Shown here: positions 1 through 7,997 of the stretch, piece by piece | Layout: the number at the start of each line of letters is the position of its first letter | Position numbering within the stretch: position 1 is the first letter of the stretch | Virus record (IMG/VR): IMGVR_UViG_2565956613_000013 | Strand: one strand, 5' to 3' | From: a virus | Lineage: Duplodnaviria > Heunggongvirae > Uroviricota > Caudoviricetes | DNA: 7,997 nucleotides | Made by a program: the position numbers and the translations under genes | Notes under the pieces: model-generated | Database searches by the model: none | What the model saw: only the letters and a program-made list of their open reading frames with translations | Told to the model about the DNA's origin: nothing

Positions 1-1
1 A

Positions 2-3000
2 ATGAAACGGCTTAATTTAGGGGACGTTTCTCGTGTAGTTCAGGAGGGCATTGCTCAACAGGAACAGCAGGCCAAATCAACTACACCAAAGGGTAAAAAA
101 AGACGCAGGAAGGCTATATCAGAGGATATAAAGGCACAACGGACCGAAGCAGCCGAACACGCTCGCGAAATGTTCGATCAAAAAGGCGGTGCGCAAAAAA
201 GCCAAAACCAACGCGATGCGCGTGGTCGTTTTATTGGAAAGTCAGGGAGTAAGGCCGCAGCGGAAGATGCCCGTGCTGAACGTGCTGAAAAGGCCAGGCG
301 CAAAGAGGATGATGAGCGTCTAAATGCTGAATCAGGTTTATTAAAAAAACTGTCAAAAGTAGCTGAAGGCATAGGTAACCCTTCAGAGACTCGTGCCGTC
401 GATGCGTTAGGTTATGCCGTTGCTGGTCCATTGTGGGCAGCAGGGAAGGAGCTTGGCGGGATATCAAAAGAAGTTGGTGGATCGCTTAATGGCGCCAGAA
501 AGTCTATTGCCGATGTGATTCGTGGCAATGACGATAACAGCCGTAGAAAAGGTTTTTTTAGGCGTAAATCGCAAAATAGTGCCGATGTCGTTCAGGTTAA
601 CACCCAAAAACGGACGGTTCAGGAACTTCAGGAGCAGACCAGCGAAATTAAAGAGGGCAATGACAAGATTCTCAGCGCCCTTGATCAGATAGCCAAAAAC
701 ACCGGGAAAAAGAAGGGCGGCTTGCTGTCCAAACTATTTAGCCTGTTAGGGAAGGGGGCCGGTGGCGTCGCGTCGTTGTTAATGGGGCGTGGCATGCTGA
801 AAAAAGCTGGAGCACTCGCTTTTGGCGCTCTGGGGGCAAAGAAACTTGTAGGAATGCTACGCGGTGGTGGCAAGAAGACTATCGCCCATGAAGGTGGAGA
901 TTTGGCTGCCCGGGCAGCAGGTAAATTTGGATTAAAGGCAGTTGGTAAAGGGGCGTTACGCGCAATTCCCTTAGTCGGCACAGTGGCTGGAGGTATTTAT
1001 GATGCGGTAACCGGTTGGAATGATACAGAAGCGCAACGTCGAGCGTTTGGGCTTAAATCAGGACAAGAGCCATCATTCCAGCAAAAAGCCGCTTATACGT
1101 TAGCCAATGTTCTTGATATGGGGGGACTGGTATCTGGTATTAGCAGCGCCATTGGTGAGGTTCTCAAATCACTTGGATTTGAGGATATCGGCAATATGTT
1201 GCAATCATTTTCGACGGAAAGTATTGCCCAGGCCATTGATAGTGGGATTACCAACTTAGAAACATATATTTCTAACCTTGGCGACACCATTTCTACCAAG
1301 TTCGAAGATTACACAGCAAAGATTGGTGATGCTGTTTCAGCATGGTTTAGCGATACATCTAATAAGCTGCTTGAAAAGCTGGATGCCATCAAAGACTTCT
1401 TTACTGTTGATAACCTGAAACAGGTTTTCAGTGATGCAATTGATAGTGCAATTGATTTCATTAAGAACCCAGGGAAACACATTAAAGAGGCGGCTGGTAA
1501 TATTTGGGATGGGGTTAAAAATTTACCTGGTAAAGCATTAGATGCAGCGGTTGATGCCGTTAAAAATACCCCTGCGGCAATGATTGTATCAAAAATACCC
1601 AATCCGATCGGCGAGGCTAATGCGAAAGAAATCACTCCGGAGTTAAAAGCTCCGGTTAATAGCCACCAGGAGACGTCTGATTCTAAAACTGAATCCGATG
1701 CCAAACAGAGTAATATTGCTACCCGCGTGATAAATGCGGCACTGGACACAGCGAAAGATAGCAATAAAACAGTTAAACAAACTGCCAATCAGATTATCAA
1801 TGCAAATGCCGTAGAAACGGGCAATAGCGCGTTGCAGAAAATTGATAAAGCTATTGGTCAAAATAGCTCGTCATCATCGTCGCTTAATACCACTGGCACC
1901 AGGAATGACATTCAGAAAGCTGCGGATACTTACAACAATGGCAACTTAGATGTAAAAGTCGGAAGTCTTGGCGCTGAAGGTAAGGCAAATCTCGATAAGT
2001 TGGCTCCGTATTTTGCCGAACTAGAGAATAAATACGGTCTTCCAGAAGGCACTCTTTACGCGATTGCTGCAACTGAATCTGGTGGTAATCCGTATGCAAA
2101 ATCCCAAACCGGTGCTCTGGGGATGTTTCAGTTCACGGGGATTGCTCGTGAAGAGACTGGCTTAGCTGAAGGTGAATCGTTTGATCCTGTGAAATCGGCA
2201 GAAGCTGCGGCTCTTCTCATGAGCAAGTATCTTAAGCAAGCCAATGGAGACTTAAACGAGGCCATCACTGCATATAATGCTGGGTTTGGCACTATTAATA
2301 AGTGGAAAAAAGGCACCGGTGACTTATCGAAAGAAAACCGTGAGTACGCGATCAAGGTCAATACTCATCGTGCTCGCTATTTAGGTGGTGAAATCTATAC
2401 ACCTGGAGCAGGAGCACAGGGTGGGGCGCAATATGGAGTGAGGGGACCACTGCCTGATAACGCTGTTATCGATCAGTATACTGGCCTGGCGTTTACCCCT
2501 GGTGATAGCCCGTTTGAGAAAGGCGGTCTGGTCGACAAAATCGGCAATGCTGTTGGCGTTAACGATCTGGTCAACAAATTCATGAATGACCGGGGGATGC
2601 GTCGGGAAGTCGTTCAGGGAACGCTAGAAGAACGTGCACGAGAGAAGGGGACCGCAACAGCAGCTGGCAATGTGTATGTTGATACTCCGATGCCAGTTGA
2701 AGAGGCGCGTCCGGTGGCCAACAACTCAAGTTACTTTGACCATCTCGGCGCACAAATGGGGATTGATGGACTATTCGATAAACTCCGCAACTCGCCGGGG
2801 ATGCGGAAAAATAATGCGCCTGAACCAGCCTCCACGTCCCAGGTGACGACTGCCGCCAACGATTTGCAGCAACCAACCGGTCGTATGCAGATAGACGGGC
2901 AGGTTATTAGTGACCTTGGCGGTTCCGGTGCCAAGCCGACAATGCAGTTGGCTGATAATACCGTTTCACTTGATGGTGAAACGAAGCGGCTGTTTGCGCA

Positions 3001-3160
3001 GATGACCTCATTGCTTGCCAGGATTGAAGAGCACACCAAAGACTCGGCGAAAGGCCAGGGAACTGTCGTAAAGGTCAGCACGCCTCAGCCGGGCGTTATG
3101 CGCACGGTACCACTGTCAATTGATGATCCGTTGATGAATGACTACGCGAGAGTTGATTGA
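2..3160 (+). CDS. sit: Phage tail tape-measure-like protein with an embedded lytic transglycosylase (SLT) domain, P1 Sit-like; 5' end probably cut by the window edge
   Basis: 1052-codon ORF from the ATG at 2-4 to the TGA at 3158-3160; only one base lies upstream, so the true start may be outside the window. Highly charged N-terminal region (KGKKRRRK, ERAEKARRKEDDER), then Gly/Ala/Lys-rich amphipathic segments (GGLLSKLFSLLGKGAGGVASLLMGRGMLKKAGALAFGALGAKK) typical of tape-measure proteins. SLT family motifs are present: AIAATESGGNP (Glu codon 2075-2077), GMFQF, AYNAG. The gene symbol rests on architecture, not on a sequence search. Confidence 0.8.
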   Translation: MKRLNLGDVSRVVQEGIAQQEQQAKSTTPKGKKRRRKAISEDIKAQRTEAAEHAREMFDQKGGAQKSQNQRDARGRFIGKSGSKAAAEDARAERAEKARRKEDDERLNAESGLLKKLSKVAEGIGNPSETRAVDALGYAVAGPLWAAGKELGGISKEVGGSLNGARKSIADVIRGNDDNSRRKGFFRRKSQNSADVVQVNTQKRTVQELQEQTSEIKEGNDKILSALDQIAKNTGKKKGGLLSKLFSLLGKGAGGVASLLMGRGMLKKAGALAFGALGAKKLVGMLRGGGKKTIAHEGGDLAARAAGKFGLKAVGKGALRAIPLVGTVAGGIYDAVTGWNDTEAQRRAFGLKSGQEPSFQQKAAYTLANVLDMGGLVSGISSAIGEVLKSLGFEDIGNMLQSFSTESIAQAIDSGITNLETYISNLGDTISTKFEDYTAKIGDAVSAWFSDTSNKLLEKLDAIKDFFTVDNLKQVFSDAIDSAIDFIKNPGKHIKEAAGNIWDGVKNLPGKALDAAVDAVKNTPAAMIVSKIPNPIGEANAKEITPELKAPVNSHQETSDSKTESDAKQSNIATRVINAALDTAKDSNKTVKQTANQIINANAVETGNSALQKIDKAIGQNSSSSSSLNTTGTRNDIQKAADTYNNGNLDVKVGSLGAEGKANLDKLAPYFAELENKYGLPEGTLYAIAATESGGNPYAKSQTGALGMFQFTGIAREETGLAEGESFDPVKSAEAAALLMSKYLKQANGDLNEAITAYNAGFGTINKWKKGTGDLSKENREYAIKVNTHRARYLGGEIYTPGAGAQGGAQYGVRGPLPDNAVIDQYTGLAFTPGDSPFEKGGLVDKIGNAVGVNDLVNKFMNDRGMRREVVQGTLEERAREKGTATAAGNVYVDTPMPVEEARPVANNSSYFDHLGAQMGIDGLFDKLRNSPGMRKNNAPEPASTSQVTTAANDLQQPTGRMQIDGQVISDLGGSGAKPTMQLADNTVSLDGETKRLFAQMTSLLARIEEHTKDSAKGQGTVVKVSTPQPGVMRTVPLSIDDPLMNDYARVD
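1990..2390 (+). other. Soluble lytic transglycosylase (SLT, family 1 type) catalytic domain inside the tape-measure-like ORF
   Basis: Translated segment LDKLAPYFAELENKYGLPEGTLYAIAATESGGNPYAKSQTGALGMFQFTGIAREETGL...AITAYNAGFGTINKWKKG carries the ES, GLMQ-like (GMFQ) and AYNAG signatures of lytic transglycosylases. Domain boundaries are approximate. Confidence 0.75.
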
Positions 3161-3516
3161 TGGCCAACAATAACGAAATTGATCCTTTGCTGACGCTGGA
3201 GTTATCCGGCGTAAAAACGTATGAGTCCCAGGAGGAGGCCTGGGGCGCTCGTTTATATGAGTGGCTAAACACTTATCAGGGTGAGGTATACGGAGATCCG
3301 TCATGGGGCAATGTTTTACCGCTGTTTAAACACGAACCGACCAACTTGTCGCATGTTCAAATTGCGGTTGAGGCAATGCTGTTGCAAAAACTGACGGTAG
3401 ATTTACCTGACATACCGATTTCTGGCTTGTCAGTAGCCGAGGGAGATGCTTTTGATAAGTTGAAAATATCCATTCGTATCAGGGATATAACTATCACACA
3501 GGACGTGGTGCTATGA
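3160..3516 (+). CDS. Small baseplate protein, gp25/GPW-like (P1 pmgA position)
   Basis: 118-codon ORF; its ATG at 3160-3162 overlaps the upstream TGA by one base (TGATG). The ORF track starts it at a TTG at 3157; I prefer the ATG. The segment EEAWGARLYEWLNTYQGEVYGDPSWGNVLPLFKHEPTN resembles the conserved core of GPW/gp25 baseplate wedge proteins as I recall it. Position directly after the tape-measure gene fits. Confidence 0.55.
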   Translation: MANNNEIDPLLTLELSGVKTYESQEEAWGARLYEWLNTYQGEVYGDPSWGNVLPLFKHEPTNLSHVQIAVEAMLLQKLTVDLPDIPISGLSVAEGDAFDKLKISIRIRDITITQDVVL

Positions 3517-4946
3517 GTAAAACAACACCGACTAAAGACAGTATTCGTGCAGAGTTTGAAGAGCTTGTCGAGAAAGATTCATTCTGGTCGAAGTTTGTCG
3601 GCTCTCAATTTGTCTCGATGCTGACATTGTTTATTACCCAGATTGTCTACAGGTGCTTTCAGTATGCCGATGCGGCGCTGGCTGAAGGCTTTATATCGAC
3701 CGCGACGCGGCGTTCCTCTATCCTGGCAGCGGCAGAAACGAATAGTTACGTTGGTACCAAGCCAACACCGTCATCGGGGATGATTGAGATCACCGCCACA
3801 AGTGAAGATGCCCCAGCGGTAATCCCCAAAAATATGCCTTTAATATCTGACGACCAGTACCCTTACATGACTATGGATGTATGCAGGTTGGTTGACGGCA
3901 CCGGTACGGTAGAAGTGGCACAGTTGGAAATCCAGGAGGTGACATATACCGTTACGGCAGCCAAAGAATTTCTGGAAGTCGTGTTATCAAAGGCTCTCAC
4001 TGCTGTCTGCTATAAGCTGGAAGTATTCGTGACGACCGATGGTAAGACCACGCAGTGGTCTTCCAGCACTATGTTCCGGTTAGCCGGTAGTAAAAGCCAG
4101 GTCTACGTTGAGTTTTATAAGCCATCCGAGCAGTTGGGGGTTCGATTCGGTGATGGGCTAATTGGGCAAATACCGCCAGAAGGCTCGACCATTACACTTA
4201 AGGTATGGTGCACCAACGGAGATATAACCCTGGTTGCTGGCCAAAACCTGACGCCTGTCGATTCTGCGGCTAATTTAGCTAATTTGATTTCAGTTAAGAC
4301 AACGACACCCATAACCGCAGGTACCGATGCCGAAACAACGGAGATCACACGTAATCGTGCACAATATTACCTTGCCTATGATGATCAGGTCGTATGGGGC
4401 GGGGACTATACGTATTTTTTGGTGCGTAACATCCCGGGACTGTCCTGGGTAAAGGCATGGGGCGAAGGCCAGCAAGAGAAATTAGATGGTGCTTATAATG
4501 TTCGGAATATCAATAAGATATTTATTTCAGGATGGCATCCAAACAAAAGCCAGTCAGAGCTTGAAGAAGTGATCCTGGCTGCCTTTAAGAAGGTGCCGAA
4601 TGAGTTGAACAAGAAATTCTCGTATAAAGAGGTCAGAAAACTCCCCTTTAAGATCACTATCACTGGGCGGATATCGGCAAGCCTGACCATTGAGAACGTG
4701 ACTGATGAGCTGAAGTCGGCACTGGAAACAAAATTTGGGCGTGACTCAACTTTCTTTGATCCGAACCGTGTTGGCAAGTACATCCTAATCAAGAAAAAAG
4801 ACGTTTGGGCATTTATCGAAACGCTGGGTTATTTCCGCGACTTTTATCTGGAATTTGTCGAGTGGAATGAGTCCAACGGCTTTTACGATTTCGTTTATCT
4901 GGATACAGAAAACTCCACCTTTAATATTTCGTATGAGGAGGAGTGA
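3513..4946 (+). CDS. Baseplate structural protein, probably baseplate-J / gp47-like (P1 bplA position)
   Basis: 477-codon ORF; its ATG at 3513 overlaps the upstream stop in an ATGA (4-nt) overlap, with AGGA about 10 nt upstream. The call is by synteny: phage baseplate modules run W-like, J-like, I-like, fibre. I did not recognise a specific motif. Confidence 0.5.
   Translation: MSKTTPTKDSIRAEFEELVEKDSFWSKFVGSQFVSMLTLFITQIVYRCFQYADAALAEGFISTATRRSSILAAAETNSYVGTKPTPSSGMIEITATSEDAPAVIPKNMPLISDDQYPYMTMDVCRLVDGTGTVEVAQLEIQEVTYTVTAAKEFLEVVLSKALTAVCYKLEVFVTTDGKTTQWSSSTMFRLAGSKSQVYVEFYKPSEQLGVRFGDGLIGQIPPEGSTITLKVWCTNGDITLVAGQNLTPVDSAANLANLISVKTTTPITAGTDAETTEITRNRAQYYLAYDDQVVWGGDYTYFLVRNIPGLSWVKAWGEGQQEKLDGAYNVRNINKIFISGWHPNKSQSELEEVILAAFKKVPNELNKKFSYKEVRKLPFKITITGRISASLTIENVTDELKSALETKFGRDSTFFDPNRVGKYILIKKKDVWAFIETLGYFRDFYLEFVEWNESNGFYDFVYLDTENSTFNISYEEE
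4934..4942 (+). promoter_or_regulatory. Strong Shine-Dalgarno sequence (GAGGAGGAG) for the gpI-like gene
   Basis: GAGGAGGAG ends 3 nt before the ATG at 4946, and lies inside the 3' end of the preceding gene; consistent with translational coupling. Confidence 0.6.
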
Positions 4947-5782
4947 TGCAGCGTTCCTGGTTTAATAACCGGCTTACATCAGCTAAGCAAAAGTCATTGC
5001 TCTATAAATCATTGGCTGATTTGGTTCAGTCAATGATGGATGCCTTTGTTGACCCATGGTTGGAGCGAATTACCAACCGGAAGTCTATTTTTTCCATGAG
5101 CAAGGAGGATCTGGAGACCAGGACAAATGAACTTGGCCAGTTCTTTACTATCAGAACGTCGAACTCATCTTCCGTTCCGATGTTGTTACAACAGCGTCTT
5201 GATGAGATTCACTTTAAGGGGACTGAACGCCCTATAAACCAGACAATTTACCGCGAATTTAACGGTATTTCTGTTTTATGGGATCCGATATATGCACCGG
5301 TGGACCTTGAGCGTCATCCCTATGGCACGGTTCTAATACCAGAAAGCACACTGGAGACTACCGGCGGCACATTCGGTGAGATGTTTCTGACTTCCAGAGG
5401 GATGATCAGTATTCCCATAAACGACCTGGCCCGGACAATGGGGATTACTGGCACGATAGATCAGTCCGCAATTACAGAAGAAATTCTCAGAAAGTTTAAT
5501 CAGTTCGTAAAGCCTCTACTGCCACTGCATATAGTGTTTGATGGGCTTACGCTCTATTTGTCGGTTGTTGTAAATGAACAGGCCGACATGATCACTTTGA
5601 ACGAGATTTCTGATACCGAAAAAGCATTCTGCTGGTTTGAAACTTCGGATACAACTTCGCTTACTGGAGTTACGTCGATTAGCGCCCCGATCACCGCAAC
5701 GCCTGGTGGCACTATTGTGAAAGCGACACCTACGTTTGATCGCACACGCGCAGATGATTTGTTGCTGGATAGCGACGCCTGA
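4946..5782 (+). CDS. Phage tail protein I-like baseplate protein (P2 gpI / Mu gp48 family; P1 gene 16 position)
   Basis: 278-codon ORF from the ATG at 4946, overlapping the upstream TGA by one base (TGATG); a strong Shine-Dalgarno GAGGAGGAG lies at 4934-4942. The track's alternative GTG start is at 4943. The segment IHFKGTERPINQTIYREF resembles the H-x-KGT region of P2 gpI-like proteins as I recall it. TGA stop at 5780-5782. Confidence 0.55.
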   Translation: MQRSWFNNRLTSAKQKSLLYKSLADLVQSMMDAFVDPWLERITNRKSIFSMSKEDLETRTNELGQFFTIRTSNSSSVPMLLQQRLDEIHFKGTERPINQTIYREFNGISVLWDPIYAPVDLERHPYGTVLIPESTLETTGGTFGEMFLTSRGMISIPINDLARTMGITGTIDQSAITEEILRKFNQFVKPLLPLHIVFDGLTLYLSVVVNEQADMITLNEISDTEKAFCWFETSDTTSLTGVTSISAPITATPGGTIVKATPTFDRTRADDLLLDSDA

Positions 5783-5785
5783 CAA

Positions 5786-5810
5786 TCACCCCGTCCGCAG
5801 GGCGGGGTGA
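5786..5810 (+). terminator. GC-rich hairpin in the intergenic gap: candidate weak intrinsic terminator, RNA-stabilising stem-loop, or dyad-symmetric regulator site
   Basis: TCACCCCG-TCCGCAGGG-CGGGGTGA: a perfect 8-bp inverted repeat around a 9-nt spacer, extendable by inner C-G pairs, starting 4 nt after the stop at 5782. The downstream sequence CAAGTTACTTCTCTTACAAT is only moderately T-rich, so any terminator would be weak. Confidence 0.3.
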
Positions 5811-5860
5811 CAAGTTACTTCTCTTACAATGAGGCTTCACAACATTGATTAGGGAAAATC

Positions 5861-6295
5861 ATGTCTGACGTCTCAACAAACCTCTATAAGAGTCAATTGT
5901 TGGACTATTACTATCAGCGGCGCGCTGAATCGTCCATTAACAAAGGCTCTCGATTTTTAATCAGCAAGGCCGTTTTCGGTACCAGTTCACTGGTTACTAA
6001 GAAAGGAGATGGCACTTATGAGATTGGAGAACTGCCAAAGGCTTTCGATCTGGCAGAACTGACCAGTCAATTTTGCACCATCAACCTCGTCCCAACCTAC
6101 TCAGGCGGGATAATTACTGTCCGAATGGACCTTGATCAAAGTCAGTTGCAGGAAGGGAAAAACTACCCATTCAACACTCTGGTTGTTCTGGATAACGAGA
6201 ATAAGCCAATCGCCATTATTTGTGTCCAGGAAGACTCGCTGTATGTGGGCAAAACATATACCGCAGTTATGGCCATAAACTCGACTACAGCATAA
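5861..6295 (+). CDS. Small tail-fibre-associated structural protein of unknown function (P1 R position)
   Basis: 144-codon ORF with ATG at 5861 and AGGGA at 5851-5855; TAA stop at 6293-6295. It sits directly upstream of the tail fibre gene and follows the only real intergenic gap in the window. It loosely resembles N-terminal anchor regions of P2 H-type fibres (NTLVVLDNENKPIAIICVQE), which is impressionistic. Confidence 0.45.
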   Translation: MSDVSTNLYKSQLLDYYYQRRAESSINKGSRFLISKAVFGTSSLVTKKGDGTYEIGELPKAFDLAELTSQFCTINLVPTYSGGIITVRMDLDQSQLQEGKNYPFNTLVVLDNENKPIAIICVQEDSLYVGKTYTAVMAINSTTA

Positions 6296-6306
6296 GGATA
6301 TGCTTG

Positions 6307-7997
6307 ATGAATGACGTTACAGTTGTTACATCGGTTACTTACCCATCACCCGAGTCGTTGGCTCTGGTGGCTGATGTGCAATACCACGAACCATATCTGT
6401 CAGCCGCTCTAAACCGAAAATTCAGGGGAATTGTTGACCCGGGATTTTATGCTGGTTTCTTGCCTAAGCCTGGCGGTGGGATGAACCTGTTAATCACCTC
6501 AGTGGATGGAGATAAAACCGCTGGCGCGGCGTCAGTGGATATTGGTGAATTCTACCAGGTAACTATTCAGCATCGTAAGGATATCTCTCTTGCACTTAAC
6601 GCAGGCAAGAAATATGCAATTGTGCTGAAGGGAAGATACCTTCTTGGAGAAGATACCTATCAGGTGAATACCGCGTCACATATTCATGCAGCTGAATTTG
6701 TTGCCAGAACCTATACCGATTCATATCAGTTAGGTGATGGGGAACTGCTGGTTTGTACGGTGAATATCCCTGCTGGCGTATCTACCATTACTCAAGAGAT
6801 GATTGATACATCCGAGCGTATCAACCGCACGATCGGCATTGATATTTCAGACTCTGTAACCAGTACCAGAAGTGATGTTGCTGCGAGTTCGCTGGCAGTT
6901 AAAAAAGCCTACGATCTGGCGAAAAGCAAGTATACGGCGCAGGATGCAAGCACAACGCAAAAGGGATTAGTTCAGCTCAGTAGTGCCACTAACAGTACGT
7001 CCGAAGTGCTGGCCGCCACACCGAAAGCTGTCAAGGCTGCATATGACCTGGCTAACGGGAAGTATACAGCCCAGGATGCAACCACGACACAAAAAGGGAT
7101 AGTTCAGCTCAGTAGCGACACCAACAGCACTTCTGAAACATTAGCTGCAACTCCAAAAGCGGTTAAAGCTGCATACGATCTAGCAGCCGGAAAGGCACCA
7201 TCCAGTCATACACATCCCTGGAATCAGATCACTGGTGTGCCAACAGCTTCATTGACAGCGAAAGGCATCACTCAGCTCAGTAGTGCCACTAACAGCACGT
7301 CTGAAGTGCTGGCCGCCACACCGAAAGCTGTCAAGTCTGTAAAAGATCTTGCTGATACCAAAGCGCCAATAGAAAGCCCGAGTCTGACAGGAACGCCAAC
7401 CGCGCCGACGGCAGCGCAAGGTACAAACAGCACGCAGATCGCAAATACAGCCTTTGTTAAGGCAGCTATAACGGCACTTATCAACGGTGCACCTGGCACA
7501 TTGGATACGCTGAAAGAAATAGCGGCTGCGATCAATAACGACCCGAATTTCAGCACAACTATCAACAATGCCTTGGCTCTCAAAGCGCCTTTGGCAAGCC
7601 CTGCATTAACGGGTGTCCCTACTGCGCCTACCGCTGCACAGGGTACGAATAACACGCAGATTGCTACGACCGCTTATGTAAGAGCTGCCATATCCGCATT
7701 GGTTGGTTCATCACCAGAAGCTCTTGATACCCTGAATGAGCTTGCCGCAGCACTTGGCAATGACCCGAACTTTGCGACAACAATGACAAATGCGCTGGCA
7801 GGCAAACAGCCTCTGGATGCAACTTTAACCGCTCTCGCTGCCCTTGCGACTGGTGCAAACAAACTGCCTTATTTCACTGGTAAGGATACGGTAGCTCAGA
7901 CTGATTTAACGTCAGTCGGTCGCGATATTCTGGCTAAAACAAGCACACTGGCCGTTATCCAATACCTTGGTTTAAGAGAACTCGGTACCAGCGGTGA
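6307..7997 (+). CDS. Side tail fibre protein, constant N-terminal part (P1/Mu S-type, lambda Stf / P2 H-related); 3' partial, continues beyond the window
   Basis: I translated this by hand from the ATG at 6307 (AGGA at 6295-6298): frame 1 is open for 563 codons to the window end. It is missing from the supplied ORF track because it has no stop inside the window. It contains the tail-fibre repeat KG(L/I)VQLSSATNSTSE(V/T)LAATPKAVKAAYDLA and the conserved block NDPNFATTMTNALAGKQPLDATLTALAALATGANKLPYFTGKDTVAQTDLTSVGRDILAK that I recall from lambda Stf and P2 H. Confidence 0.9.
   Translation, partial: MNDVTVVTSVTYPSPESLALVADVQYHEPYLSAALNRKFRGIVDPGFYAGFLPKPGGGMNLLITSVDGDKTAGAASVDIGEFYQVTIQHRKDISLALNAGKKYAIVLKGRYLLGEDTYQVNTASHIHAAEFVARTYTDSYQLGDGELLVCTVNIPAGVSTITQEMIDTSERINRTIGIDISDSVTSTRSDVAASSLAVKKAYDLAKSKYTAQDASTTQKGLVQLSSATNSTSEVLAATPKAVKAAYDLANGKYTAQDATTTQKGIVQLSSDTNSTSETLAATPKAVKAAYDLAAGKAPSSHTHPWNQITGVPTASLTAKGITQLSSATNSTSEVLAATPKAVKSVKDLADTKAPIESPSLTGTPTAPTAAQGTNSTQIANTAFVKAAITALINGAPGTLDTLKEIAAAINNDPNFSTTINNALALKAPLASPALTGVPTAPTAAQGTNNTQIATTAYVRAAISALVGSSPEALDTLNELAAALGNDPNFATTMTNALAGKQPLDATLTALAALATGANKLPYFTGKDTVAQTDLTSVGRDILAKTSTLAVIQYLGLRELGTSG
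6901..7335 (+). repeat. In-frame tail-fibre repeats: two tandem 44-aa units (6901-7032, 7033-7164) plus a third partial copy (7258-7335)
   Basis: Units KKAYDLAKSKYTAQDASTTQKGLVQLSSATNSTSEVLAATPKAV and KAAYDLANGKYTAQDATTTQKGIVQLSSDTNSTSETLAATPKAV have a 132-nt period. Nucleotides 6972-7035 and 7272-7335 match over 64 nt with 2 mismatches (6996 and 7002), exactly 300 bp apart. Confidence 0.85.
7360..7803 (+). repeat. Two tandem 74-aa (222-nt) repeats in the tail fibre
   Basis: Unit 1 (7360-7581) KAPIESPSLTGTPTAPTAAQGTNSTQIANTAFVKAAITALINGAPGTLDTLKEIAAAINNDPNFSTTINNALAL versus unit 2 (7582-7803) KAPLASPALTGVPTAPTAAQGTNNTQIATTAYVRAAISALVGSSPEALDTLNELAAALGNDPNFATTMTNALAG; I counted 51/74 identical residues. 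The nucleotide sequences are diverged. Confidence 0.8.
7955..7980. other. Candidate 26-bp DNA-invertase crossover site (hix/gix/cix family) inside the fibre coding sequence; likely left boundary of an invertible host-range segment
   Basis: TTATCCAATACCTTGGTTTAAGAGAA. Its reverse complement TTCTCTTAAACCAAGGTATTGGATAA matches the Mu gixL sequence as I recall it (TTCCTGTAAACCGAGGTTTTGGATAA) at 21 of 26 positions, and matches Salmonella hixL at 20 of 26. It has the imperfect dyad around a central TT/AA typical of these sites, and it sits where P1 and Mu place the site in the S gene. Confidence 0.6.

Follow-up and report, generated by a model that had tools for sequence, protein, structure and literature searches.

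How does a phage tail-fibre gene come to hold two nearly identical 64-nt direct repeats exactly 300 bp apart, with a third copy between them that encodes almost the same peptide in different codons? The question arises in a window of 7,997 nt (the whole stretch of DNA analysed here) from a P1-like phage-plasmid, one of a group of elements that commonly carry resistance genes in E. coli. Comparison of the gene with its relatives leads us to posit that the repeats are very probably Phage_fiber_2 shaft motifs in the constant segment (Sc) of tail-fibre gene S, of two paralogous types, A and B, combined in a 300-nt unit whose copy number is changed by homologous events.

The window derives from an IncY element of the P1 type: E. 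coli pMB5646_3 matches it at 100% identity, and record NZ_CP103660.1, likewise 100% identical, agrees in the order of sit, baseplate genes, R and S, an order also found in P1 records. Gene R (5861-6295), 98.6% identical to its P1 counterpart, lies upstream of a plus-strand frame that is open from the ATG at 6310 to the window end at 7997 and is 100% identical to the CDS annotated as 'tail fiber protein' in NZ_CP103660.1. By its place 3' of R, as in the P1 tail-fibre operon, and by its high nucleotide identity along P1 Sc (93.0% over 1,398 aligned nt, collinear except for one 300-nt gap), this frame is the 5' part of gene S, which runs beyond the window end to a full length of 3,891 nt in the source plasmid. 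Sc extends to the cix crossover near 7968, where the cixR core (CCAATACCTTGGTTTAAGAG; 7959-7978, plus strand), at which Cin inversion crosses over, corresponds to the cixR annotated in P1 and is the single match in the window, against 0 expected by chance; a recombinase gene is present downstream in the source plasmid. The cixR site is not part of the repeat mechanism and bounds the gene segment that holds the repeats. Both the a and the b repeated elements of P1 are present, a0, a1, b1 and b2 mapping onto 6895-7806, and relative to P1 the window has two extra 'a'-type units; the motif repeats are the counterparts of these annotated 'a' elements. Pfam family PF03406 (Phage_fiber_2) matches S in four stretches at 218.4 bits, well above the curated gathering cutoff of 22 (E = 5e-66).

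Within this segment, all on the plus strand, a degenerate motif copy (ISDSVTSTRSDVAASSLAVKK) at approximately 6847-6909 forms one of the four Phage_fiber_2 stretches and overlaps the P1-annotated 'repeated element a0' (window equivalent 6895-6930 in the P1 alignment). Copy 1 (6972-7035) is a type A motif in a 'first-copy' variant with T6996 and C7002, and is followed by a 68-nt linker (7036-7103, encoding AAYDLANGKYTAQDATTTQKGIV) that completes a 132-nt sub-unit. Copy 2 (7104-7167), a type B motif (QLSSDTNSTSETLAATPKAVK), is followed by a 104-nt linker (7168-7271, encoding AAYDLAAGKAPSSHTHPWNQITGVPTASLTAKGIT with an HxH motif) that completes a 168-nt sub-unit. Together these make up one complete A-linker-B-linker compound unit of 300 nt or 100 codons (6972-7271; 132 + 168 nt), which is tandemly iterated in related alleles and absent from P1. 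Copy 3 (7272-7335), again type A in a 'later-copy' variant with C7296 and T7302, opens a second period that is interrupted by a joint to P1-type sequence. That sequence begins with SVKDLADTK (7336-7362), at a point where array-type alleles continue after the A motif with GCTGCATATGA (AAYDLANGK...), and goes on into the 222-nt repeated elements b1 (7363-7584; 97.6% identical to P1) and b2 (7585-7806; 62% nucleotide identity to b1), both placed by alignment to the P1 annotation.

As the initial annotation had noted, copies 1 and 3 differ at only 2 of 64 nt (T/C at 6996 and C/T at 7002), their starts being exactly 300 nt apart; both differences are synonymous (AGT/AGC Ser and TCC/TCT Ser), and each copy encodes QLSSATNSTSEVLAATPKAVK. 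The edges of this identity are sharp, the bases before 6972 and 7272 being unrelated and 7036 differing from 7336. Since all other direct repeats in the window are at most 24 nt long at 71-93% identity, the likeness of copies 1 and 3 is not due to chance. The initial annotation was also right that the middle copy spells nearly the same peptide with many synonymous changes, although its position, given as about 7093-7160, becomes 7104-7167 when read in register. Copy 2 differs from copy 3 at 16 and from copy 1 at 18 of 64 nt, the latter through 13 synonymous and 2 non-synonymous codon changes that keep 19 of 21 residues. It shows how alike two stretches are when codons for almost the same peptide are chosen independently (about 72% identity, against 97% between copies 1 and 3). 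Type B is an old paralogue of type A. Rather than a converted pair flanking a diverged copy, copies 1 and 3 represent consecutive periods of a compound A-B unit.

A repeat search and TRF also place a 132-nt periodicity at 6907-7038, 7039-7170 (75%) and 7207-7338 (64%), and this periodicity is the older one. Run on the window alone, TRF reports only the 132-nt period (1.9 copies, 78% matches) and misses the 300-nt unit because just 1.2 copies of it are present; the longer unit becomes visible only through comparison with relatives. A minus-strand ORF of 127 aa that overlaps copy 3 (7272-7655) was set aside as a mechanical consequence of a coding strand that is repetitive and Ala/Thr-rich. The window contains no Chi site, and outside 7959-7978 it has no match to the cix core at up to 3 mismatches, within the repeats or elsewhere; the repeats thus bear no cix-like sequence on which Cin/Min site-specific recombination could act.

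Among 16 related S alleles, a hand-picked and non-random sample, the gene forms a series of the form (A-B)n-A. P1 stands at n=0, exactly 300 bp shorter than the window, with the gap falling between copy 1 and copy 3; P7, RCS47, SJ46 and hundreds of plasmids are shorter by the same 300 bp at the same spot. One unit (n=1) is present in the window and in L015, two in L011 and four in L010; L016 adds a P1-type copy to its two units and L005 an extra A to its three, and L007 and phage vB_EcoM-673R5 (L012) reach n=5; in motif copies, L003 and L009 reach 13 and L008 and L013 reach 15, so that related plasmids range overall from zero to at least six units. The spacing between motifs is always 132 or 168 nt, except that L005 has an in-frame duplication of 12 nt and the two phage records show gaps of 1 nt. 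All three step sizes (132, 168 and 300 nt) are multiples of three, as in a VNTR-like coding repeat that varies in frame, and the S CDSs of RefSeq plasmids are intact at 2,019-3,795 nt. Homologues therefore do not all keep the three-copy arrangement, and the proposal in the initial annotation that recombination between copies 1 and 3 would give fibre length variants of 100 codons agrees well with what alignment reveals, P1 and its like being 300 bp shorter and other alleles carrying two to five or more units.

The series also extends across nearly constant backgrounds. Over the 660 nt that precede copy 1, eight alleles show 0-2 mismatches, and their n values are 1, 1, 2, 2, 3, 4, 5 and 5. L008 and L009 are 99.7% identical in their flanks (9 of 3,464 and 11 of 4,700 positions differ), and their arrays are exactly one clean 300-nt unit apart. 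Copy number thus varies between near-identical genomes and shifts much faster than point substitutions accumulate. The units lie head to tail at high identity, 1.2 of them in the window and as many as 5 canonical ones, or 15 motif copies, in relatives; compared across 10 alleles, 24 canonical units show 97.2-100% identity to one another, with 17 variable sites. Neighbouring units of one array have private variants in common, namely T16/G20 in L005, G49 of B in L007, and C25/A58 in the arrays of L003, L008 and L009. The full 300-nt unit is found in 184 of 5,426 E. coli genomes, and an identical protein of 13 motifs (WP_077879135.1) is encoded by two independent plasmids, from Myanmar and China. 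In tandem arrays of 300-nt units some of the lengths recorded may reflect assembly, and the 1-nt gaps in the two phage records break the ORF. A lambdoid Stf (L006) and a P2-like fibre (L014) also contain the A/B module, at 92.7-98% nucleotide identity, and tandem 132-nt 'a' units in 2-3.6 copies are present in prophage fibres of many Enterobacterales.

The window allele itself is a chimera, with an array-type left part and a P1-type right part that includes b1 and b2, joined at 7335/7336 at the end of copy 3. Array-type alleles match its left flank at 100% identity, and b1 and b2 are found only in P1-type or hybrid alleles. The joint is present in just 5 of 5,426 genomes, and the n=1 hybrid recurs in four independent records, those from Greece and elsewhere including NZ_MK410117.1, NZ_MK455768.1 and NZ_JBWLLS010000002.1. 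The mosaic half of the initial annotation's proposal of gene conversion or mosaic acquisition thus holds, with this joint as its evidence, while the recent gene conversion half is not needed, the near-identity being family-wide.

That second half would have a conversion private to this plasmid overwrite copy 3 with copy 1, or the reverse, and leave the middle copy untouched. Gene conversion is one process that homogenises repeats, and an identity of 62/64 with tract edges sharp at both ends is what such an event could leave behind. Across 12 alleles, however, including the lambdoid and P2-like fibres, A copies lie 0-3 of 64 nt from copy 1, the sole exception being one terminal copy at 6 nt, and no diverged copy 3 occurs among the alleles compared. 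The first A copy of L005, L007, L010, L011 and L015 has the same sequence as copy 1, and later A copies of L007, L010, L011, L015 and L016 match copy 3 exactly; the window's two differences are therefore a 'first versus later copy' polymorphism that it shares with L007, L010, L011 and L015. Type B is equally conserved across alleles (0-2 nt), as expected of two stable types, and paralogues within an allele are not more alike than orthologues between alleles. Because the near-identity is common to the whole family, a private recent conversion is not needed, and we regard it as very improbable. Still harder to credit is the idea that the 64-nt identity is kept by selection on the nucleotides themselves, as a recombinase site, a regulatory RNA or the target of a DNA-binding protein, and not by repeat dynamics. 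We found no support for it and considered it only since the identity far exceeds what the peptide needs. Type B, with 13 synonymous codon changes and near-same peptide, is as conserved as its own type as A is; the sole cix-like site in the window is the one at 7959-7978; and in the arrays high identity spans the whole 300-nt unit and not just the 64 nt.

A more serious competitor, which we consider possible but on the unlikely side, is that n=1 is a primary acquisition, the 300-bp cassette or the whole left part having been gained once from another fibre gene through recombination, so that the window allele is a seed or stable form, not itself dynamic, and not a contraction. The allele is chimeric with its joint at the copy 3 end, records from Greece and elsewhere independently show this n=1 hybrid, and the A/B module is common to unrelated fibre genes. 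Moreover, an exact deletion junction, built synthetically by fusing copy 1 to 7336 onward, is absent from 5,426 E. coli genomes, so that no exact deletion derivative was found there; the best contiguous match in that set is 93.7%, and the idea that P1 is a recombinant of this allele was rejected for want of anything closer. In the databases, n=0 alleles have a P1-type copy that has diverged by 17 nt and are therefore not recent deletion products of the window allele; by the same token, the 300 bp that separate P1 from the window are an old difference or the result of replacement, not of a recent crossover. Against a single acquisition stands the sister hybrid L016, which combines n=2 and a P1-type copy with an identical b2 and with the window's left flank (a single mismatch over 660 nt), so that copy number varies on the P1-type right-hand background too; two 64-nt stretches of 97% identity 300 bp apart are, besides, ample substrate for recombination. 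Finally, the window's unit might be a longer array collapsed in assembly, or the longer arrays might be mis-assembled. Tandem 300-nt repeats at 99% identity are hard for short-read assembly, repeats prevented the full assembly of induced phage-plasmids (Pfeifer et al., PMC9600943), and the frameshifting 1-nt gaps of two phage records lie within the array. Yet the n=1 hybrid is present in four independent records, the 13-motif WP_077879135.1 is identical in two independent plasmids, the arrays of RefSeq plasmids hold exactly to the 132/168-nt registers and stay open in frame, and the n=0 state of P1 comes from Sanger sequencing in several records; an artefact is accordingly a poor candidate, with little chance of being the explanation.

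We thus return to shaft motifs in a unit of variable copy number as the preferred reading. Old paralogous motif types A and B alternate at 132- and 168-nt spacing to form the 300-nt, 100-codon unit, of which the window holds one plus the start of the next (A-B-A); because it holds A-B-A, copies 1 and 3 are near-identical and the middle copy is synonymously diverged. In the P1-like population this unit acts as a tandem array, its copy number probably being altered between long near-identical direct repeats, with unequal crossing-over, replication slippage or exchange with other fibre genes as candidate routes. A gain or loss of 132, 168 or 300 nt stays in frame, and each step would probably make the trimeric fibre shaft longer or shorter by two motifs and leave the receptor-binding end untouched. 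In the window allele an array-type left part, through A-B-A, is joined to the part with b1, b2 and cixR where copy 3 ends in its conserved ...AATPKAVK-coding stretch. The alignments directly show the anatomy, the series of alleles, a clean step of 300 nt between plasmids that are otherwise near-identical, and the chimera. The pathway would be one that depends on RecA, on slippage or on a phage function; the window allele could be a contraction or a seed; and an effect on fibre length or host range would be a plausible consequence.

We tentatively raise a further reading, to which we give low credence: that the (A-B)n array is a fast-switching contingency locus that tunes the length of the tail-fibre shaft. 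It fits the evidence because copy number outpaces substitution and the variants are all in frame. If it were true, populations would continually make virions with fibres of differing reach, matched to the O-antigen or capsule depth of the available hosts, and such tuning would complement Cin/Min inversion, which switches the receptor-binding tip. Array change might be accelerated by a function that the phage uses in recombination, for instance Ref, whose gene family is listed among the genes of P1-group phage-plasmids (PMC9600943).

What we describe is a real but ordinary, largely known route for phage fibres to change length, and there is little new in it in principle: motif-mediated mosaicism of tail fibres is textbook phage biology, and the 'a' and 'b' elements of P1 Sc have been annotated in GenBank for decades. 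Its use is mainly practical. P1-like S genes differ by whole 300-nt units, so length differences or 'partial' matches should not be taken to mean different fibre types or pseudogenes, and short-read assemblies are unreliable at the S repeat region. The natural series from n=0 to at least 6 on near-identical backbones offers material for testing shaft length against adsorption to hosts with different surface layers, and the conserved ...AATPKAVK-coding stretch is a natural joint that could be used to engineer chimeric P1 fibres.

Sandmeier, Iida and Arber are said to have reported in 1992 that P1 and p15B carry sequence amplifications, as mosaics of partially related repeated elements. The repeated elements a0, a1, b1 and b2 of the P1 S constant part are annotated in GenBank M81956 and AF234172, and the window shares with P1 Sc the gene, the position, the 132-nt 'a' period and the downstream b1 and b2. 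In contrast to the single diverged full motif copy of P1 (n=0), it has three copies and the compound A-B unit; the P1 annotation has P1-p15B homology ending at window equivalent 6996, within copy 1. Exchange at conserved motifs between different phages reportedly underlies the mosaic evolution of tail fibres described by Haggard-Ljungquist et al. Similarly, the A/B module is common to P1-like S, lambdoid Stf and the P2-like fibre, with homology bounded by motif edges, but in P1-like S the motifs also drive copy-number change inside one gene. Tetart et al. (1996) reportedly described in-frame tandem duplications in the T4 gp37 adhesin that alter host range and arise by recombination between short repeated motifs. 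The S gene resembles gp37 in having in-frame tandem duplications between short motifs of a tail-fibre gene; those of gp37, however, reportedly affect the receptor-binding tip and thereby act on host range directly, whereas the S array is shaft and sits upstream of the invertible receptor-binding segment.

The collagen-like and coiled-coil repeat domains of E. coli prophage side tail fibres also vary in length (Ghosh et al. 2012, PMC3368898). These trimeric fibres contain Phage_fiber_2 (Pf2) and, like S, change length in frame by whole periods, but their Gly-X-Y and heptad repeats move in steps of 3 and 7 residues, whereas in S it is the Pf2 motif that varies, by 44, 56 or 100 residues at a time. 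A 300-nt array or copy-number series in P1-like plasmids is not described in PMC6906374, PMC9600943, PMC9603915, PMC3368898, PMC8078820 or PMC3945230.

Among solved structures, none of which covers an array, the only chains with a recognisable motif are those of phage Mu S (gp49; PDB 5yvq, 9ki1 and 8ju3; residues 95-152, E = 3e-8), which unlike the P1-like S has a single motif copy and no array; other matches were to antibody chains at E > 0.5 and were discarded as noise. A single-sequence AlphaFold2 model of 6901-7420 was unusable (mean pLDDT 38.7, pTM 0.17), as expected because the segment belongs to a trimeric fibre. One might speculate, by analogy with other fibres, that the 168-nt linker binds metal through its HTH, as an HxH site.

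Alignment of the repeats in tail-fibre gene S bears out the near-identical 64-nt pair reported in the initial annotation: copy 1 (6972–7035) and copy 3 (7272–7335) start exactly 300 nt apart and differ at 2 of 64 bases (6996 and 7002, both synonymous), and direct repeats elsewhere in the window are all 24 nt or shorter, none comparable to this pair. The middle copy had been placed slightly off and lies in register at 7104–7167, but its description as encoding nearly the same peptide with mostly synonymous divergence stands, as 18 of 64 bases differ from copy 1, with 13 synonymous and 2 non-synonymous codon changes and 19 of 21 residues kept. Pfam assigns the peptide motif to Phage_fiber_2, at 218 bits over four stretches, and a 132-nt period is seen at 6907–7038, 7039–7170 and 7207–7338. 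At the same place in Sc, the constant part of S, P1 GenBank records annotate repeats of 36 nt (‘repeated element a0’), 132 nt (‘a1’) and 222 nt (both ‘b1’ and ‘b2’); the a/b elements are in this sense already known. Mapped from P1, b1 and b2 occupy 7363–7584 and 7585–7806 as a second tandem repeat pair, 62% identical to each other in nucleotides and encoding APxxSPxLTGxPTAPTAAQGTN...NDPNFxTT.

In P1, P7, RCS47, SJ46, JL22 and hundreds of plasmids, S aligns end to end with the window, over 1,398 nt versus 1,698; in the global alignment with P1 the 300-nt gap falls between copies 1 and 3, leaving P1 a single motif copy against three in the window. Length variants of exactly 300 bp, the main prediction of the initial annotation, are thus found, and the feature itself is real and was correctly observed. 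Mapping every type A (copies 1 and 3) and type B (copy 2) motif in 14 further S alleles yields a series (A–B)n–A in which motifs lie 132 or 168 nt apart and n counts complete 300-nt units: n is 0 in P1, 1 in the window and hybrid allele L015, 2 in L011, 2 plus a P1-type copy in hybrid L016, 3 plus an extra A in L005 (NZ_CP065205.1), 4 in L010, and 5 in L007 (NZ_CP102949.1) and phage vB_EcoM-673R5 (L012, ON470615.2). L003 and L009 hold 13 motif copies, L008 and L013 (ON470617.2) hold 15, and L004 holds at least 12, its array extending beyond the stretch compared; some extra B–B steps, 168 nt each, occur in the two longest array classes. Annotated RefSeq plasmid S coding sequences are intact at 2,019 to 3,795 nt. 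Copies 1 and 3 are thus consecutive periods of one compound unit of 300 nt, with copy 2 as its other half, which explains why the flanking copies are near-identical while the middle one is full of synonymous changes; A and B are old paralogues, and the higher-order unit is young.

Several arrays carry irregularities of their own. In L005, a 12-nt in-frame duplication (…HPSNQITNQITGVP…) at about 1900–1935 extends one 168-nt linker to a 180-nt spacing, and the three later A copies all share the same private changes (SATDSTSE). The induced-phage records L012 and L013 have 167-nt rather than 168-nt spacings at several array positions, and their S is annotated as several fragments; the short spacings probably reflect 1-nt mistakes in sequencing or assembly and not real pseudogenes. 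In L007, a second R and then a second S annotated as frameshifted lie directly downstream of the first fibre operon (9043–10300), a tandem duplication of the R–S region.

Eight alleles with 0–2 differences from the window over the 660 nt upstream of copy 1 have n of 1, 1, 2, 2, 3, 4, 5 and 5. Similarly, the plasmids pEC2_5 (USA, urine) and pSJ_98 (China, pheasant), with handles L008 and L009, differ at 9 of 3,464 and 11 of 4,700 flanking positions, while their arrays are exactly one unit apart with an identical 780-nt prefix and 1,500-nt suffix. Such unit differences on near-identical flanks indicate that copy number changes far faster than single bases are substituted. Across 10 alleles, the 24 canonical units share 97.2–100% identity with only 17 variable sites, and private variants tend to be common to neighbouring units within one array, which we read as the signature of amplification and unequal exchange inside arrays. 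Recent gene conversion had been proposed for the likeness of copies 1 and 3; however, the pattern ‘First A = T..C, later A = C..T’ recurs in L007, L010, L011 and L015, so that the two differences between the window's A copies are shared with other alleles and conversion specific to this plasmid is unnecessary. We also reject the short alleles as fresh recombinants of the window allele: although alleles exactly 300 bp shorter exist, they represent an old, diverged form, and the exact deletion product was not found in 5,426 complete E. coli genomes (best contiguous match 93.7%). Of these genomes, 299 contain the contiguous one-copy, P1-type allele; a complete 300-nt unit occurs at least once in 184, and a single genome can match it in as many as 14 places. 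It is the array-type alleles, those with repeated A–B units, that show clean, recent ±300 events.

Mosaic acquisition, also suggested initially, is borne out, as these alignments show the window allele to be a chimera of an array-type left part and a P1-type right part. Up to copy 1, S is 100% identical to L005, L007, L011 and L012; b1, b2 and the rest occur, among the alleles compared, only in P1-type alleles and the two hybrids, and array-type alleles continue after their last A with AAYDLANGKQAADATL..., without b1 or b2. The joint lies at 7335/7336, where the conserved ...AATPKAVK-coding stretch ends, and a query across it is at least 80% covered in only 5 of the 5,426 genomes. The A/B module is also present in a lambdoid Stf gene (L006, 98% identity) and a P2-like fibre gene (L014, 92.7%), and P1 annotation independently places the end of P1–p15B homology at the equivalent of 6996, within copy 1; the motifs are therefore also seams for fibre-gene reshuffling. 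Along the right part, identity to P1 falls stepwise (b1 97.6%, b2 91%, 7807–7997 86%), which suggests further mosaic joints.

Prophages of Shigella, Buttiauxella, Serratia, Kosakonia, Enterobacter, Citrobacter and other genera also have tandem 132-nt ‘a’ units in their fibre genes (2–3.6 copies, 76–95% matches). The near-identical compound unit was found in this sampling only in Escherichia sequences: E. coli P1-like plasmids, a few E. coli prophages and L018, an Escherichia sp. contig of 1,154 bp with 99% protein identity. Contigs binned in Sporobacter, Collinsella and Bacillota MAGs (L032, L035, L055) carry sequences close to the Enterobacterales fibre motif (69–89% amino acid identity); most likely these contigs come from enterobacterial prophages or plasmids and were binned wrongly.

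Long, near-identical in-frame direct repeats, an allelic series stepping by whole units, clean unit differences on near-identical backbones and mosaic joints at motif edges are all seen directly. Copy number may change when repeats undergo unequal homologous recombination or slip during replication, and also when sequence is exchanged with other fibre genes. With each unit the trimeric shaft, which lies upstream of the invertible receptor-binding segment, would gain two Phage_fiber_2 motifs (100 residues in each chain), and fibre length might change accordingly. A PDB search with the motif matched only a single Mu S copy, and an AlphaFold model of the repeat segment was unusable. For tail-fibre genes, horizontal exchange and the rearrangement of motifs were reportedly described by Haggard-Ljungquist in 1992 and Sandmeier in 1992 and 1994, papers cited in PMC3945230. 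The window S is an allele with extra units within the known repeat architecture of a well-studied gene; wider significance could come only if array length proved to be an adaptive trait that switches rapidly and sets how far the fibre reaches. Other repeat domains vary in length in E. coli prophage fibres with the Pf2 domain, about which little was known (Ghosh et al. 2012, PMC3368898). Among accessible recent P1-like phage-plasmid surveys we found no description of the array, the fibre region being treated as variable; one reports assembly hampered by repeats (PMC9600943).

The source plasmid pMB5646_3 (NZ_CP103660.1, IncY, 96 kb), from an E. coli blood isolate, is 100% identical to the window, which follows the P1 gene order: sit (transglycosylase/tape measure, 2–3160), three baseplate/tail genes, R (5861–6295) and S, from an ATG at 6310 to beyond the window end. 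With one gap set aside, the S segment and reference P1 Sc share 93% identity; Sc ends at cixR, the Cin crossover site, which in the window lies at 7959–7978. The cixR core for Cin-mediated inversion, CCAATACCTTGGTTTAAGAG, lies 20 nt before the window end, so that the window reaches only a short way into the invertible C segment; a plasmid match to this stretch (H88) sits within a recombinase gene. At full length, S of the source plasmid (CDS 9008–12898) is a protein of 1,296 residues; past the window end it has a further family of repeated motifs (…GNQNTTGNAATATKLQTARTI/NGVSFDGSANI…), in at least four copies. RefSeq plasmids disagree on the name of the baseplate J/gp47-like gene in the P1 tail module (3513–4946): several call it ‘bleomycin hydrolase’, another ‘baseplate J/gp47 family protein’.
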